This document shows, in pieces, positions 4,737 through 16,898 of a stretch of DNA of 17,352 nucleotides (its first letter is position 1; every line of letters starts with the position of its first letter). This DNA is from an uncultured Clostridia bacterium (GTDB taxonomy: Bacteria > Bacillota > Clostridia > TANB77 > UBA1234), in assembly GCA_947624765.1 (NCBI GenBank), contig CANQLS010000007.1:1-17352 (forward strand). The letters run 5' to 3'. The notes below the pieces were generated by a model. It did not search any database and was not told where the DNA came from. It saw only the letters and a program-made list of their open reading frames with translations. The translations under genes and the position numbers were made by a program.

Positions 4737-4772
4737 ATGAAATCAAAATGGCGGTCACTGGCCGCCACTACA
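4737..4772 (-). terminator. Intrinsic terminator of the MMPL operon; also a copy of the GTAG+GC-hairpin repeat family
   Basis: The minus strand reads GTAG-TGGCGGCCAGTGACCGCCA followed by TTTTGATTT. The stem is 7 bp (4750-4756 / 4760-4766, one G-U) with a 3-nt loop. It lies 22 nt after the stop of the 689-aa gene. Confidence 0.75.
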
Positions 4773-14927: not shown

Positions 14928-15338
14928 ATGCCTAGAGGAGTAAAAAAAGATTCAAATACAAATTATGGTACTGGTAGAAGAAAATGTTCTATCGCAAGAG
15001 TTAGAATTATGCCAGGAAAAGGAAAAATCACAATTAACGGATTAGATATTGATGAATATACATCAACAGATGTATTAAAAGTAATTATTAGACAACCACT
15101 TGTTGCAACTAATACTGAAGGAAAATATGATGTTGTTGTAAAAGTTACTGGTGGTGGCCTATCTGGTCAAGCTGGAGCTATTAGACATGGCTTAGCAAGA
15201 GCTTTAGTAAAAGCAAATGAAGAAAATAAACCTGCTTTAAAAACTGCTGGTTTCTTAACAAGAGATCCAAGAATGAAGGAAAGAAAGAAACCAGGATTAA
15301 AGAAAGCAAGAAAAGCTCCACAATTCTCAAAGAGATAA
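14928..15338 (+). CDS. rpsI: 30S ribosomal protein S9
   Basis: [13 protein letters not shown]...[19 protein letters not shown]...RKAPQFSKR, 136 aa. The RBS GGAGG precedes the ATG. Confidence 0.97.
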
Positions 15339-15353
15339 TATTTTCAAAAATAC

Positions 15354-15392
15354 AACCCCTACAGTTACAGATGGCTGTAGGGGTTTAAGTTT
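15354..15392 (+). terminator. Intrinsic terminator of rplM-rpsI
   Basis: CCCCTACAG (15356-15364) / CTGTAGGGG (15375-15383), followed by TTTAAGTTT. Confidence 0.8.
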
Positions 15393-15438
15393 AATAAGAA
15401 TTAGTTAAATAATTTTTCAAAATCCATGTTGCTGCAGC

Positions 15439-15463
15439 TGTAGCGGCGCCCATTGGACGCCAT
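15439..15463 (+). repeat. GTAG + GC-rich hairpin element (REP-like), copy A
   Basis: TGTAGCGGCGCCCATTGGACGCCAT: GTAG at 15440-15443, then a 7-position stem (one C/A mismatch) with a 3-nt loop. It matches the reverse complement of copy B at 23 of 25 positions. Confidence 0.6.
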
Positions 15464-15537
15464 TTAAGCAAGGATACAACAAAATCTTTTCTTTAGCGCA
15501 CTACAACAAATTATGAAAAAGAAATATTCTTCTATTT

Positions 15538-15562
15538 ATGGCGGCCAATGGCCGCCGCTACA
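15538..15562 (-). repeat. GTAG + GC-rich hairpin element (REP-like), copy B, inverted relative to copy A
   Basis: The + strand reads ATGGCGGCCAATGGCCGCCGCTACA (reverse complement TGTAGCGGCGGCCATTGGCCGCCAT). The stem is a perfect 7 bp, GGCGGCC/GGCCGCC. It is separated from copy A by 74 nt. The copy at 4748-4772 has the same orientation and the same flanks (AT...RCTACAYTC). Confidence 0.6.
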
Positions 15563-15592
15563 CTCGCACTGCTTTAATTTCTAATCTTTTGG

Positions 15593-15620
15593 TTGATTTT
15601 TTTCAAAATTCATATATAAT
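15593..15620 (+). promoter_or_regulatory. Sigma-A type promoter of the MazF-like gene
   Basis: TTGATT (15593-15598), 16-nt spacer, TATAAT (15615-15620). This gives a leader of about 125 nt before the ATG at 15753. Confidence 0.6.
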
Positions 15621-15678
15621 ATGGGCATAGCGATTTATAATGATACTTATAAATAAAAAGTTCAAAATGCACTATAAA

Positions 15679-15697
15679 ATTAAGCAAATATTTGAAT
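15679..15697 (+). repeat. 19-nt direct repeat ATTAAGCAAATATTTGAAT, copy 1 (contains the 10-bp palindrome CAAATATTTG)
   Basis: Identical 19-mer at 16419-16437. It lies in the 5' leader of the MazF-like gene. Confidence 0.8.
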
Positions 15698-15752
15698 ATT
15701 TAGTATTTTAGAAAAAAGTTATAGTAGATTAAATAAAAATAGGAGAAATAAT

Positions 15753-16253
15753 ATGTTATTAAATGCTGTTATAACAGAAATTAAAAAAATTATAAATAGA
15801 ATTGACTTTGACAATTATTTTAATTGGTTTATTAAAAAATTTGATTTTATAGACATTTCTAAGCAATTAAATAGCAAAAAAACGAATGGACTACATCCAA
15901 TTAGGCCACGCAAAGGCGAAATATATACTGTTGAATTTGGGCAAAATGTTGGCTCCGAATTAAGTAATATGCATTTAGGTATAATTGTTCAAGATTCTTT
16001 AAAAAATAGTGTCTCAAGTACAGTAGTTGTAATTCCTATCTCAAGTTCACCTAAATTATATGATACTCATCAATTAATAACAGCTAACGATGTCATTAGT
16101 GGTAAATTGAATAAATTACCTTCTAAAGCCAAAGCAGAACAAATAACTTGCATTGATAAAGCCAGATTAATACATAAGGTTGCCGAACTATCCCCTACTT
16201 TTATGGCTAAATTGGAACAACGTATTAAAAAGACTTTAGATATTAAATCATAA
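15753..16253 (+). CDS. MazF/PemK-fold toxin-like protein with a ~50-aa N-terminal extension
   Basis: Residues about 51-160, RPRKGEIYTVEFGQNVGSELSNMHLGIIVQDSLKNSVSSTVVVIPISSS...ITCIDKARL, align by eye with MazF/EndoA ([47 protein letters not shown]...IRTIDKQRL). Strong RBS AGGAGA 6 nt before the ATG. There is no internal Met that could give a shorter protein. Confidence 0.75.
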   Translation: MLLNAVITEIKKIINRIDFDNYFNWFIKKFDFIDISKQLNSKKTNGLHPIRPRKGEIYTVEFGQNVGSELSNMHLGIIVQDSLKNSVSSTVVVIPISSSPKLYDTHQLITANDVISGKLNKLPSKAKAEQITCIDKARLIHKVAELSPTFMAKLEQRIKKTLDIKS

Positions 16254-16338
16254 AAAATAGGATGGGCTAACCCCATCCAAAATCAACCATATACATTTCT
16301 GTATATGCAAGTACCACTTAACGTGGAAAATATTTGTT
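16252..16338 (-). ncRNA. Candidate ~85-nt sRNA convergent with and abutting the MazF-like gene
   Basis: It has a consensus promoter (next feature). The predicted transcript is TTATTTAACAAATATTTTCCACGTTAAGTGGTACTTGCATATACAGAAATGTATATGGTTGATTTTGGATGGGGTTAGCCCATCCTATTTTTT. It contains two internal hairpins (CCAC/GTGG and the 8-bp CATATACA/TGTATATG). A terminator hairpin GGATGGG/CCCATCC (16278-16260) is followed by a U-tract (16259-16252) that overlaps the toxin TAA. No RBS or credible ORF is present. Confidence 0.55.
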
Positions 16339-16344
16339 AAATAA

Positions 16345-16373
16345 ATTATAGCAAATATTTCTACTGATGTCAA
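16345..16373 (-). promoter_or_regulatory. Near-perfect sigma-A promoter on the minus strand driving the candidate sRNA
   Basis: The minus strand reads TTGACA (16373-16368), a 17-nt spacer TCAGTAGAAATATTTGC, then TATAAT (16350-16345), with TGC forming an extended -10 (TGnTATAAT). Confidence 0.65.
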
Positions 16374-16418
16374 GTTGCACAATTTATTATATGTAAAAAA
16401 CCTAAATTTATGTAGTAG

Positions 16419-16437
16419 ATTAAGCAAATATTTGAAT
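16419..16437 (+). repeat. 19-nt direct repeat ATTAAGCAAATATTTGAAT, copy 2
   Basis: Identical to 15679-15697. It is preceded by TAGTAG, so that TAGTAGATTAA (16413-16423) also repeats 15722-15732. Confidence 0.8.
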
Positions 16438-16554
16438 TAAACTAGGTAGATACTATTGTAATAATGATTTATTTAGTTTTAAGTTTTATAAGAATTAATT
16501 CTAAAGATACTTTTATTTTGACTTTTATAAACTTTTAGCTTAAAATATAGATAG

Positions 16555-16641
16555 ATAGATAGTATATTAAATATTCATAGAGAAGAAATGATGGCTATGT
16601 GGGCCACGCAAGAATTTAAGCAATTGCCACCGCTAGATTAA
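16555..16641 (+). pseudogene. 3' remnant (about 28 codons) of a DUF4160-family gene
   Basis: The open frame IDSILNIHREEMMAMWATQEFKQLPPLD* resembles the C-terminal end of DUF4160 proteins (...H.EEL...W......KIEPL.). Its stop lies just upstream of the DUF2442 start, as in intact DUF4160-DUF2442 pairs. The N-terminal two thirds, including the His-rich core, is missing, and an in-frame TAG lies at 16552-16554. Confidence 0.5.
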
Positions 16642-16646
16642 AGGAG

Positions 16647-16898
16647 ATGATTTTTTTGTTTCACAAAGTAAAAAAAGTTGAGCCTTTGGATAATTATAAG
16701 ATACTAGTAACTTTTGAAGATGGTACAACAAAAGTTTATGATGTTAATATCTTATTTGATAAATTCGTGATTTTCAACCAGTTAAAATTAGTACAAGGAC
16801 TTTTTGAACAAGTAAAAGTTGATACTGGCGGTTATGGAATTTACTGGAATGATGACATTGATTTATCTTGTAATGAATTATGGGATAATGGAATTTAA
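16647..16898 (+). CDS. DUF2442 domain protein
   Basis: KVKKVEPLDNYKILVTFEDGTTKVYDV...VKVDTGGYGIYWNDDIDLSCNELW matches the DUF2442 pattern (V.PL.dy.L...F.nG....D......V.vd..G..i.W....DisPe.LY). The ATG at 16647 touches the RBS AAAGGAG, so TTG at 16656 (MFHKVKKV...) is probably the real start. Confidence 0.75.
   Translation: MIFLFHKVKKVEPLDNYKILVTFEDGTTKVYDVNILFDKFVIFNQLKLVQGLFEQVKVDTGGYGIYWNDDIDLSCNELWDNGI

Follow-up and report, generated by a model that had tools for sequence, protein, structure and literature searches.

MazF is the textbook toxin of type II toxin-antitoxin systems, and all characterised MazFs are, to our knowledge, held by a protein antitoxin. As far as we know, RNA antitoxins directed at a protein are confined to the ToxN, CptN and TenpN families and invariably take the form of repeat arrays: in these type III systems the antitoxin consists of short direct repeats in tandem, which lie upstream of the toxin, with a terminator in between, and are processed by the toxin. 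In type I systems of Firmicutes, such as txpA/RatA and bsrG/SR4, the toxin is a membrane peptide of less than 60 aa, and the sRNA comes from a strong constitutive promoter, the two convergent genes meeting at their 3' ends. A conserved RNA structure beside Firmicute pemK genes, the pemK motif, was reportedly described by Weinberg et al. in 2017, and is classed as a cis-regulatory 5' element. The motif corresponds to Rfam family RF02913 (10.1101/2021.11.03.467129). Finally, Sma, a solitary MazF-like gene forming a single-protein system, is placed by two papers that cite it in the accessory region of a phage-inducible chromosomal island or defence island (PMC12409344, PMC12829572).

The locus described here shares traits with each of these. 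It lies in a window, by which we mean the whole stretch of DNA analysed, of 17,352 nt. The toxin gene (15753-16253, plus strand, with its TAA at 16251-16253) encodes a 166-aa, N-terminally extended, putative endoribonuclease of the PemK/MazF family. A putative sigma-A promoter, TTGATT-16-TATAAT, called purely by its match to the consensus (10 out of 12 positions), is found on the same strand at 15593-15620, a position corresponding to a 5' UTR of about 125 nt; GGAG is read 8 nt ahead of the ATG. An earlier note, made from the letters of this DNA, had pointed to this gene, its own promoter and ribosome-binding site, the lack of a MazE/PemI-sized ORF around it, and an sRNA unit of promoter, two hairpins and terminator on the opposite strand, the U-tract of which overlaps the toxin TAA: whatever it stated about the sequence between 15593 and 16373 was borne out.

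In a profile search, toxin residues 54-161 match PF02452 (PemK_toxin) with an E-value of 9.7e-21 and 74.5 bits, against a cut-off of 23.1, and PemK_toxin alone, no further family, was returned by the Pfam search. Sequence matches in the PDB are the S. aureus and B. subtilis MazF (E 1e-8). An AF2 model, based on an alignment from three subfamilies, reached a pLDDT of 93.8 and predicts a MazF/CcdB-type SH3-like barrel: the top 50 PDB structures retrieved by Foldseek are all MazF (E down to 5e-11, target TM 0.85-0.90, rmsd 1.6-2.4 Å), and no ToxN, CptN or AbiQ chain is found among these best 50 matches. The structure prediction proposed in the earlier note has, in other words, returned a MazF-like protein. 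The barrel (residues 53-161; 15909-16235, plus strand), as delimited by PF02452, Foldseek and the alignment to S. aureus MazF, is 28% identical to that of the S. aureus and B. subtilis proteins, with a target TM of about 0.9. Judging from the model, the toxin has a genuine MazF/PemK fold.

Alignment to S. aureus MazF places the invariant H74 at the position of the catalytic Arg, and S97, within an invariant PISSS motif, at that of the catalytic Thr; in B. subtilis MazF these two residues are R25 and T48. All putative active-site positions, H74, S97-S99 and E69, are invariant among homologues. The conserved Arg to His substitution may still be catalytic, and the protein is, by analogy, probably a sequence-specific single-strand RNase.

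Two features were not mentioned in the earlier note: the toxin clusters with true MazF and not with ToxN, and it carries an N-terminal extension of about 52 residues (residues 1-52; 15753-15908, plus strand). The latter is predicted to form two helices, 3-11 and 19-41, at a pLDDT above 90; it is absent from canonical MazF and falls outside the 119 columns aligned to MazF by Foldseek. The homologue alignment reveals conserved F19, F23, W25, F26 and K29 within the extension, which bears aromatic and acidic residues.

The type II systems MazEF, PemIK and EndoA-EndoAI, to which the S. aureus and B. subtilis MazF belong, share the same catalytic barrel. In contrast to them, the present family features the two-helix extension, a His in place of the catalytic Arg and a dedicated sRNA gene, and has no upstream co-transcribed MazE/PemI gene at any locus. 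The 360 nt upstream of the toxin contain only ORFs of 20-30 codons, none conserved in relatives, and no MazE-sized gene was found at any homologous locus, over more than 12 different genomic contexts, from which the Sporomusa carbonis homologue is left out. In loci L001-L011 and L109-L121, likewise, gene calling placed nothing between the toxin and its neighbours. The toxin gene stands alone in unrelated neighbourhoods, stretches without called genes extending for about 180 nt on its upstream side and for 235-1100 nt on the other; a small protein antitoxin gene consistently preceding the homologues, an outcome which the earlier note had envisaged, was not observed.

The candidate RNA antitoxin is encoded on the minus strand. 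Its promoter (16345-16373), TTGACA-17-TGnTATAAT, is a perfect consensus, 12 out of 12 positions plus TG, against the 10 out of 12 of the toxin promoter; it is the sole perfect site detected by a promoter scan of the region, and its TTGAC and TATAAT are kept at all homologous loci, in both orientations. The transcript, of about 87 nt (16252-16338, ends inferred from promoter and U-tract), is made up of a 5' tail, a P1 hairpin, a linker, a P2 hairpin, a second linker and a terminator. The single-stranded motif UAUUUU (16327-16332, minus strand), directly 5' of P1, is invariant (columns T13-C20). P1 (CCAC/GUGG, 16314-16326) and P2 (CAUAUACA/UGUAUAUG, 16288-16307), both predicted by folding of the minus strand, are followed by the conserved single-stranded linker GUUGAUUUU (16279-16287), where A62, T63, T64 and T65 are invariant and T59, T60 and G61 reach at least 90%. 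The length of the P2 loop differs among loci. The intrinsic terminator (16252-16278) has its stem at 16278-16260, followed on the minus strand by TATTTTTTAT, with the U-tract at 16259-16252; the T-run at 16257-16252 is the part that overlaps the toxin TAA.

When folded, the 96-nt minus-strand RNA forms two hairpins plus the terminator at -26.6 kcal/mol (z = -3.4, with 1 out of 200 shuffles as good), and model R1 of this RNA scores 101.6 bits at 16251-16344 (E 2e-18). No Rfam match to the sRNA was found in the window at the gathering threshold, in the 15300-16700 region at E up to 10, or in 20 related loci at E up to 0.1. Like the pemK motif, it is a conserved RNA adjoining pemK-type genes; unlike it, it is a free-standing downstream gene, without an RF02913 match in the Rfam scans.

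Wherever the flanking sequence of a close homologue is long enough, at about 30 loci with toxins at least 55% identical, the same RNA adjoins the toxin stop codon. There, R1 scores 80-111 bits in every full close-family locus, and 53-55 bits in the outgroup loci L031 and L032, while nothing comparable was found on about 60 loci of ordinary PemK genes. R1 matches of 20-32 bits were not counted alone, because one of 28.6 bits falls inside a phage DNA polymerase gene (L096). Recurring beside a homologous gene at some 30 independent loci, the promoter-RNA-terminator unit is far beyond chance. In the alignment, 98.8% of cells are paired, the same figure being recorded for helix 1, and compensatory changes are seen in 12 out of 20 pairs, one of them in helix 1, 5 out of 7 in helix 2 and 6 out of 9 in helix 3, the terminator; none of 500 shuffles was as good. 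This pattern argues that the sRNA structure is under selection.

Two decayed loci retain an intact RNA: in L019 an in-frame deletion has removed the catalytic core of the toxin, and in L018 the toxin lacks the N-terminal extension. Among the genomes, plasmids and mobile islands of Clostridia, toxin-RNA pairs number in the dozens. By these comparisons, the sRNA appears to be real in an evolutionary sense and tightly coupled to the toxin gene. The survey of homologues suggested in the earlier note gave a divided answer: the promoter-RNA-terminator unit always accompanies the toxin, while the convergent layout is confined to the clade of the window.

These data also bear on another explanation of a MazF gene standing alone, namely that it is the remnant of a mazEF operon which lost mazE and came by chance to neighbour an unrelated sRNA or terminator. 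In keeping with such a remnant, the protein is annotated by Pfam and NCBI alike as a PemK/MazF toxin of type II. More than 200 full-length homologues, however, keep the whole 165-aa protein, the RNA found beside it at about 30 loci of unrelated context is the same one, mazE being present at none, and covariation points to selection on that RNA; this explanation retains hardly any probability, and is effectively refuted.

The association extends beyond close homologues to subfamily 2, with toxins of about 50% identity, and subfamily 3, of about 30%. In both, one or two non-identical RNA genes are found downstream of the toxin. In subfamily 2, which includes a 6.5-kb RepB plasmid of the cultured Paraclostridium sordellii C171 (NZ_CP124284), promoter-hairpin-hairpin-terminator RNA genes, usually two, come straight after the toxin on the same strand, and their sequences have diverged alongside it. 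For subfamily 3, the same toxin-RNA layout was recognized in L065, which was read directly and is the sole locus providing an independent check. In place of UAUUUU, subfamily 2 has UAUUUAG and subfamily 3 has CAUUUAG.

Only the window's clade has the RNA convergent with the toxin gene. In the sister clade (L008-11, L015, L016, L018, L019, L028, L029), the outgroup pair L031/L032 and both of the further subfamilies, 2 and 3, RNA and toxin share a strand; by parsimony, the tandem arrangement is ancestral, and the layout of the window is best accounted for by a single inversion in its clade. This distribution bears on the main idea of the earlier note, a type I-like mechanism, in which the convergent sRNA would be the essential antidote by pairing with the 3' end of toxin transcripts that read through, causing their degradation or blocking their expression. 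Throughout the window's clade, indeed, the sRNA terminator reaches up to or into the toxin stop codon, with an RNA-ORF overlap of 3-15 nt, and this layout has persisted despite toxin divergence down to about 62% identity. Moreover, the shared hairpin is followed on the plus strand by AAAATC, without a U-tract, and a terminator scan called no plus-strand terminator there, so that about 85 nt of any read-through toxin mRNA would be complementary to the sRNA. In the tandem loci, however, complementarity to the toxin mRNA is impossible, since the RNA is on the same strand, and no significant complementarity in trans was found between the sRNA and the toxin 5' region. Furthermore, while the strong constitutive sRNA promoter is a trait in common with Firmicute type I systems, the toxin is a 166-aa soluble RNase and no small membrane peptide, only the terminator tail overlaps, barring read-through of the toxin mRNA, and the meeting of convergent 3' ends is not kept across the family. 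Given that convergence is restricted to one clade, the 3' antisense overlap is most likely a derived trait, produced by one inversion, and is not supported as the core mechanism: as an essential antidote, cis-antisense pairing is unlikely.

Comparison of the loci suggests that the RNA functions independently of its orientation; as both orientations trace back to one inversion, this independence is based on few evolutionary events. An orientation-independent way of acting would be that of a base-pairing sRNA, repressing toxin translation in trans near the ribosome-binding site. Between the 5' part of the sRNA, UAUUUUCC, and the Shine-Dalgarno region of the window's toxin mRNA, GGAGAAAUA, a short, imperfect duplex is conceivable. 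The CC of the motif is, however, locked in P1, its complement is missing from the Shine-Dalgarno contexts of subfamily 2, and, over 10 loci, RNAduplex pairing of the sRNA with toxin 5' regions was no better than with shuffles (z from -1.9 to +1.2), the best duplex sites varying between loci. Pairing in trans is accordingly very improbable.

The reading we prefer, compatible with both orientations and raised as an alternative in the earlier note, is that of a type III-like module, in which a MazF-family toxin would be neutralised through direct binding by a dedicated, strongly expressed, non-repetitive sRNA; we put its probability at roughly 0.5. An RNA which always accompanies a MazF-type toxin devoid of a protein antidote gene is probably its restraint, and it is probably RNA, rather than protein, that keeps this toxin in check. 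The fold of the protein, the lack of an antitoxin gene, the conservation and covariation of the RNA in either orientation and the mobile-element settings are observed here; from them we infer the toxicity of the protein, its binding to the RNA and the parts of the RNA contacted. For direct binding, indirect support comes from the orientation-independence of the RNA, the lack of an antisense target and the invariant single-stranded motifs. According to this model, the endoribonuclease would be produced from a moderate promoter, and the structured sRNA, from its own perfect-consensus promoter, in excess over it; the sRNA would then bind the toxin protein directly and neutralise it. The single-stranded, U-rich UAUUUU before P1 and GUUGAUUU before the terminator may act as pseudo-substrates in the RNA groove of the MazF dimer, with specificity provided by the sRNA hairpins and perhaps also by the N-terminal helices of the toxin. 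These motifs sit in AT-rich DNA, and their conservation could partly reflect the needs of an RNase or of the terminator. Should transcription stop, for instance because of phage shut-off or the loss of a plasmid or island, decay of the RNA would set the RNase free. Inversion of the RNA gene in the window's clade would make read-through toxin transcripts antisense to the RNA, possibly adding a second, derived layer of control.

Some observations weigh against this type III-like module. Toxin activity is assumed, a His being present at the catalytic Arg position; the conserved N-terminal extension could serve as an intramolecular inhibitor, leaving the RNA with another role; and the locus has no repeat array, unlike known type III antitoxins (none was detected by TRF in 15300-16700). 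In addition, since single-protein MazF-like defence genes exist, a MazF without a protein antitoxin does not in itself demand an RNA one. The protein and RNA might form a ribonucleoprotein or an enzyme-substrate pair instead of a toxin-antitoxin system: the protein, harmless owing to its N-terminal extension or to low activity, would employ the adjacent RNA or RNAs, process them or be targeted by them; the RNA might confer specificity or sensing as a cofactor, or else be a regulatory RNA that the protein matures.

This alternative would account for the conservation of the aromatic and acidic extension and for the Arg to His change, and has a precedent in Sma, described as a solitary MazF-like antiphage protein (PMC12409344, PMC12829572). 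It would also fit the presence of two paralogous RNAs in most subfamilies, one antidote not obviously needing a second, and a phage N-extended PemK-like gene (L096) which has no RNA partner. On the other hand, decayed toxin genes beside an intact RNA are what an antidote predicts, and a perfect constitutive RNA promoter suits an inhibitor made in excess. The genomic settings of the homologues point in the same direction: they include the RepB plasmid, PICI-like islands (with D5 primase, DUF1492 and HNH genes), an AbiEii neighbour and transposases, all typical of addiction or defence modules, and a small plasmid and the accessory slots of mobile islands suit addiction or abortive-infection modules. 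On balance, a ribonucleoprotein or enzyme-substrate pair seems doubtful.

As a type III-like module, the locus has in common with ToxIN, CptIN, TenpIN and AbiQ/antiQ an endoribonuclease without a protein antitoxin, a tightly linked small non-coding RNA gene, plasmid and mobile or defence settings, an RNA probably in excess and, as proposed here, direct inhibition of the protein by the RNA. It differs in that the toxin is a PF02452 MazF/PemK protein, and no member of ToxN, AbiQ, CptN or TenpN. Furthermore, where those systems have 36-45-nt repeats arrayed in tandem ahead of the toxin gene, the present RNA genes, one or two in number and about 70-100 nt long, stand by themselves downstream, each with its own promoter and terminator. 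Release of the units requires no processing by the toxin. The likeness to Sma, the protein of SaPIpT1028, consists in a MazF-like gene without a protein antitoxin, several of the present relatives lying in PICI-like contexts; the papers citing Sma report no RNA partner, the comparison being one of descriptions only.

No Rfam family or PADLOC model describes the toxin-sRNA module, PADLOC models giving no match, and our literature search found no MazF/PemK system with an sRNA antitoxin. Tentatively, and at odds a little short of even, these pairs would represent a previously undescribed, widespread toxin-antitoxin or defence class in Clostridia and other Bacillota, composed of a true MazF with an N-terminal helical extension, bound directly and thereby neutralised by one or two dedicated, independently transcribed, non-repetitive structured sRNAs, with no MazE. 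If this is true, a MazF lineage with an sRNA in place of its protein antidote would be a new family in the repertoire of RNA antitoxins: the type of antitoxin would be evolutionarily exchangeable on one toxin fold, and a new route to RNA antitoxins would join type II toxins to type III logic. It would also account for 'orphan' PemK/MazF annotations in gut and rumen Clostridia, and imply that RNA partners have been overlooked for some of the MazF-like genes described as 'solitary' or 'single-protein'. Such a compact two-part module, of about 0.75 kb, might be of use as a plasmid-stabilisation or phage-defence tool. With three subfamilies, both orientations, natural covariation and decayed toxins, the pairs identified offer material for binding and rescue tests.

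A few minor features were considered and set aside. A tiny ORF inside the sRNA (AUG GUU GAU UU..., MVDFGWG) has no Shine-Dalgarno sequence, and its AUG is AAG in the tandem clade. Direct repeats flanking the locus, evaluated as att sites or as part of the module, are present in the window and absent from five other loci. A search of a phage collection gave no match, and viral contigs contain only distant PemK genes, without the RNA. Weak Rfam matches in 15300-15590 (WsnRNA46 and others) merely correspond to a long GC-rich hairpin upstream.

The window comes from the chromosome of a spore-forming Firmicute and is AT-rich. Among its gene products are ribosomal protein L20, SpoIID, an M23 peptidase, a class II aminoacyl-tRNA synthetase and a protein with an S1 domain, along with IF-3, L13 and S9, recognized by reading their translations by eye. 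Past the terminator of the S9 gene a gene-poor stretch begins, in which the toxin ORF is located (15753-16253, + strand, 166 aa). Residues 54-161 of its product match PF02452, PemK_toxin, with an E-value of 9.7e-21; a GGAG lies 5' of the ATG, and a promoter-like site, TTGATT-16-TATAAT, at 15593-15620 (+). The sRNA is encoded on the opposite strand, with a perfect TTGACA-17-TATAAT promoter featuring an extended TG (16373-16345, -, 12/12) and a terminator made of a GC hairpin (16278-16260, -) followed by TATTTTTTAT, whose T-run overlaps the toxin TAA. For the RNA between these signals, the predicted fold comprises the terminator and two further hairpins (-26.6 kcal/mol, z -3.4). An earlier note had described this locus from the sequence alone, and ORF, both promoters, RBS, hairpin and TAA overlap were all correct. 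It had also regarded the hairpin as a poor terminator for the toxin mRNA: on the + strand the shared hairpin is indeed followed by AAAATC, and the terminator scan called no terminator there. No tandem repeat array was found around the module.

The lack of a MazE/PemI-sized ORF, equally pointed out in that note, extends to the homologous loci examined: ORFs 5' of the toxin are 20-30 codons long in the window, and no small ORF in this position is common to different loci. Gene calling placed nothing between the toxin gene and the unrelated genes around it in any context examined, and so no gene for a protein antitoxin. These neighbors include an IS66 fragment, Y1 and IS110 transposases, AbiEii, DUF4258, RepB, and sets of D5-primase, DUF1492 and HNH genes, the latter typical of phage-inducible islands.

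Homologues of the toxin, 164-170 aa long, gave 211 matches covering 99% of the query, with 58-100% identity among the 120 listed; the N-terminal extension of about 52 residues thus belongs to the family. Within it F19, F23, W25 and F26 are conserved and K29 is nearly invariant in the homologue alignment. An AlphaFold2 model, built on an alignment of three subfamilies (pLDDT 93.8), shows two helices (3-11 and 19-41) ahead of a beta barrel that carries a helix at its C-terminus. All of the best 50 Foldseek PDB matches are canonical MazF toxins, such as those of S. aureus, B. subtilis (YdcE/EndoA), B. anthracis (MoxT) and M. tuberculosis (MazF-mt1, mt3 and mt9), with a target TM-score of about 0.9 across 119 columns, corresponding to the core only; no ToxN, CptN or AbiQ chain is found among these 50. 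The MazF/PemK-like nature of the protein, initially proposed by eye, is thereby borne out. In a profile alignment with S. aureus MazF, the invariant H74 occupies the position of the catalytic Arg, and S97, within the invariant PISSS motif, that of the Thr, these being the residues regarded as catalytic in studies of MazF from B. subtilis. The protein is not covered by any PADLOC model.

The RNA unit recurs each time in the DNA 3' of homologous toxin genes, as read directly, and was confirmed in 20 distinct sequences by BLAST and MAFFT. A consensus, derived from an alignment of 18 RNAs, consists of a 5' tail ending in AAAUAUUUU, P1 (CCAC/GUGG), the linker AACUU, a 7 bp P2, the linker GGUUGAUUU and the terminator. 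In a set of 21 distinct RNAs the proportion of paired cells is 98.8%, and compensatory double changes occur in 12 out of 20 pairs; none of 500 shuffles reaches this covariation, and slid registers fall to 31-53% paired. In the RNA alignment, UAUUUUCC and the second linker's AUUU, both single-stranded, are invariant. R1, a covariance model of the sRNA of the close family (toxins at least 55% identical), was used to look for the co-occurrence that the note had proposed to check. Each close-family locus with flanking DNA contains one strong match (80-111 bits), which touches the stop codon of the toxin gene; the window scores 101.6 bits (16251-16344, -) and the outgroup L031/L032, whose toxin is 55% identical, 53-55 bits. 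Nothing comparable was found in about 60 loci of ordinary PemK genes. R1 E-values are rough, matches of 20-30 bits can be false, and the survey covers the loci retrieved for homologues, a subset of genomes. No Rfam family matches the sRNA, the pemK motif RF02913 included.

The convergent layout noted in the window holds throughout its clade, with the U-tract overlapping the stop codon (3-15 nt). The RNA shares the toxin's strand in the sister clade (L008-L011, L015, L016, L018, L019, L028 and L029), in L031/L032 and in the more distant subfamilies 2 and 3. Sister-clade loci have a -35 TTGACA made of the last toxin codons (Leu-Asp-Ile), and the RNA model begins 14 nt past the stop there; in L031/L032 it starts 42 nt after it. 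The window's layout is explained by one inversion, because a neighbor-joining tree of the toxins separates the convergent and tandem layouts cleanly; the argument from orientation is based on this one inversion, together with a consistent tandem layout in three other groups. Since an RNA transcribed from the toxin's own strand cannot have an antisense relation to its mRNA, conservation applies to the RNA and its adjacency, not to the antisense overlap. Judged from these orientations, the 3' overlap put forward in the note, a cis-antisense, type I-like mechanism, cannot be the general mode of control. A trans-antisense mechanism has no support either, the energies of sRNA duplexes with the toxin 5' region being equal to those of shuffled controls.

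Subfamily 2 toxins are about 50% identical and 185-242 aa long, and include genes of Niameybacter, Gudongella, Tissierella and Sporomusa, and a member beside RepB on a 6.5-kb plasmid of Paraclostridium sordellii C171. Every copy examined is solitary, with CTTGACAT within the last codons in all, and is usually followed by two same-strand RNA genes: RNA1 (UAUUUAG, P1, CAC, P2, GUUUUUUAG, terminator) and RNA2 (UAUUUAG, P1, CAC...UAUUUCUUAG, terminator). Both covary, RNA2 in 11 of 15 pairs. R1 does not recognize them, hence RNA and toxin have diverged in parallel. Subfamily 3 toxins are about 30% identical, many being 244-275 aa long; in L065, a locus of this subfamily, a promoter and two RNA genes lie past the stop, each RNA starting with ACAUUUAG or ACAUUUAA and a hairpin. 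The tandem clade of the close family likewise has another, weak RNA paralogous to the first, as in L008 (3641-3739). A U-rich single-stranded AUUU[A/U] directly 5' of a hairpin is common to all these RNAs.

The model fitting all these observations is that of a protein-binding RNA antidote, as in type III systems. Such an antidote would work in either orientation and diverge in step with its toxin, and a perfect constitutive sRNA promoter against a weaker toxin promoter would suit it. Invariant single-stranded motifs flanked by covarying hairpins are suggestive of a protein-binding RNA; the U-rich ones are candidate pseudo-substrates for the MazF RNA groove, to which the N-terminal helices may add a docking surface. 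Within the clade of the window, toxin mRNA extended by read-through would in addition be antisense to the sRNA, possibly a derived second layer. According to the main rival explanation, the protein would be self-restrained or non-toxic, and would use or process the RNA; a precedent is Sma, a solitary MazF-like antiphage protein described as acting without a partner. In L019 (1501-1749) an in-frame deletion removes toxin residues ~41-115, the catalytic core, and in L018 (1480-1866) the N-terminal extension is lost; in both, the sRNA is intact and full-scoring (88-90 bits with R1). A further decayed toxin gene, truncated after residue ~79, is found in L034 (1213-1437).

With the RNA acting as antidote, the module would work most like type III systems, but it lacks two features defining the known families, their toxin family and the upstream repeat array. 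Its protein belongs to MazF/PemK, but without the protein antitoxin that defines type II, and likeness to Firmicute type I loci is confined to the derived gene layout of the window. No description of such a MazF and sRNA module was found in Rfam, PADLOC or the searchable literature; it would represent an RNA-partnered RNase toxin module built on MazF.

Second paralogous RNA genes are found in most tandem loci, 30-60 nt past the first (L008 3641-3739, L106 about 2385-2490, L109 about 2865-2935, L065 about 1795-1885), each with a separate promoter-like box and terminator and, like the first gene, an AUUUAG-hairpin start at the 5' end. In connection with subfamily 3, several 240-280-aa relatives from a representative search show two PemK-like stretches, possibly a single-chain pseudo-dimer. 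In L062, L064, L065 and L072 this takes the form of two overlapping ORFs in different frames (888-1133 and 1081-1647 in L065), which could be due to frameshifting, to misassembly or to a genuine split.

Genes for a D5_N/DUF5906 primase, a DUF1492 regulator and HNH flank several subfamily 2 modules (L116-L119; genes 1-1093 and after 2629), which thereby occupy the accessory slot known from PICI-like phage satellites; another module (L120, 1-1032) is located in a defence or TA island, next to genes for AbiEii and DUF4258. In L013 a tRNA gene (2217-2289, -) lies directly beside the sRNA promoter and, since tRNA genes are common integration sites, the module may have come with a mobile element. 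In the phage contig L096, the gene for an N-extended PemK-like protein of 167 aa (2444-2947) is squeezed in between that for a DNA polymerase and the one that follows, leaving no room for an RNA partner beside it; a 28.6-bit R1 match in this contig falls inside the polymerase gene and was rejected as a false positive.

In the window, the DNA that separates the toxin promoter from the rpsI terminator holds a GC-rich inverted repeat (15439-15562), with 38-nt arms that are 79% complementary and a spacer of 48 nt. It folds with -53.7 kcal/mol (z = -5.8) and looks like a REP/MITE-type repeat; a partial third copy of its arm is found in another intergenic region, at 4748-4771 (chance expectation 0). 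Weak Rfam matches at this repeat reflect the hairpin only and were dismissed. Direct repeats flank the module, at 15647-15697 and 16387-16437 (51 nt, 73% identity, 19 nt exact, ATTAAGCAAATATTTGAAT) and at 15384-15406 and 16478-16500 (23 nt, 91%). They are specific to the window's genome, because they are absent from the five other loci checked, and may be the footprint of an insertion or rearrangement. Downstream, at 16647-16898, lies a gene for a DUF2442 protein (E 1e-14), a family usually paired with DUF4160 as a putative TA pair; a 17-codon ORF just 5' of it (16588-16641, MMAMWATQEFKQLPPLD) could be what is left of the 3' end of a DUF4160 gene after truncation. Just past the sRNA promoter, at 16470-16512 (+), a UAUUUAG motif, with an AT-rich palindrome and then a T-run behind it, may represent a degenerate remnant of the RNA2 gene known from tandem loci.
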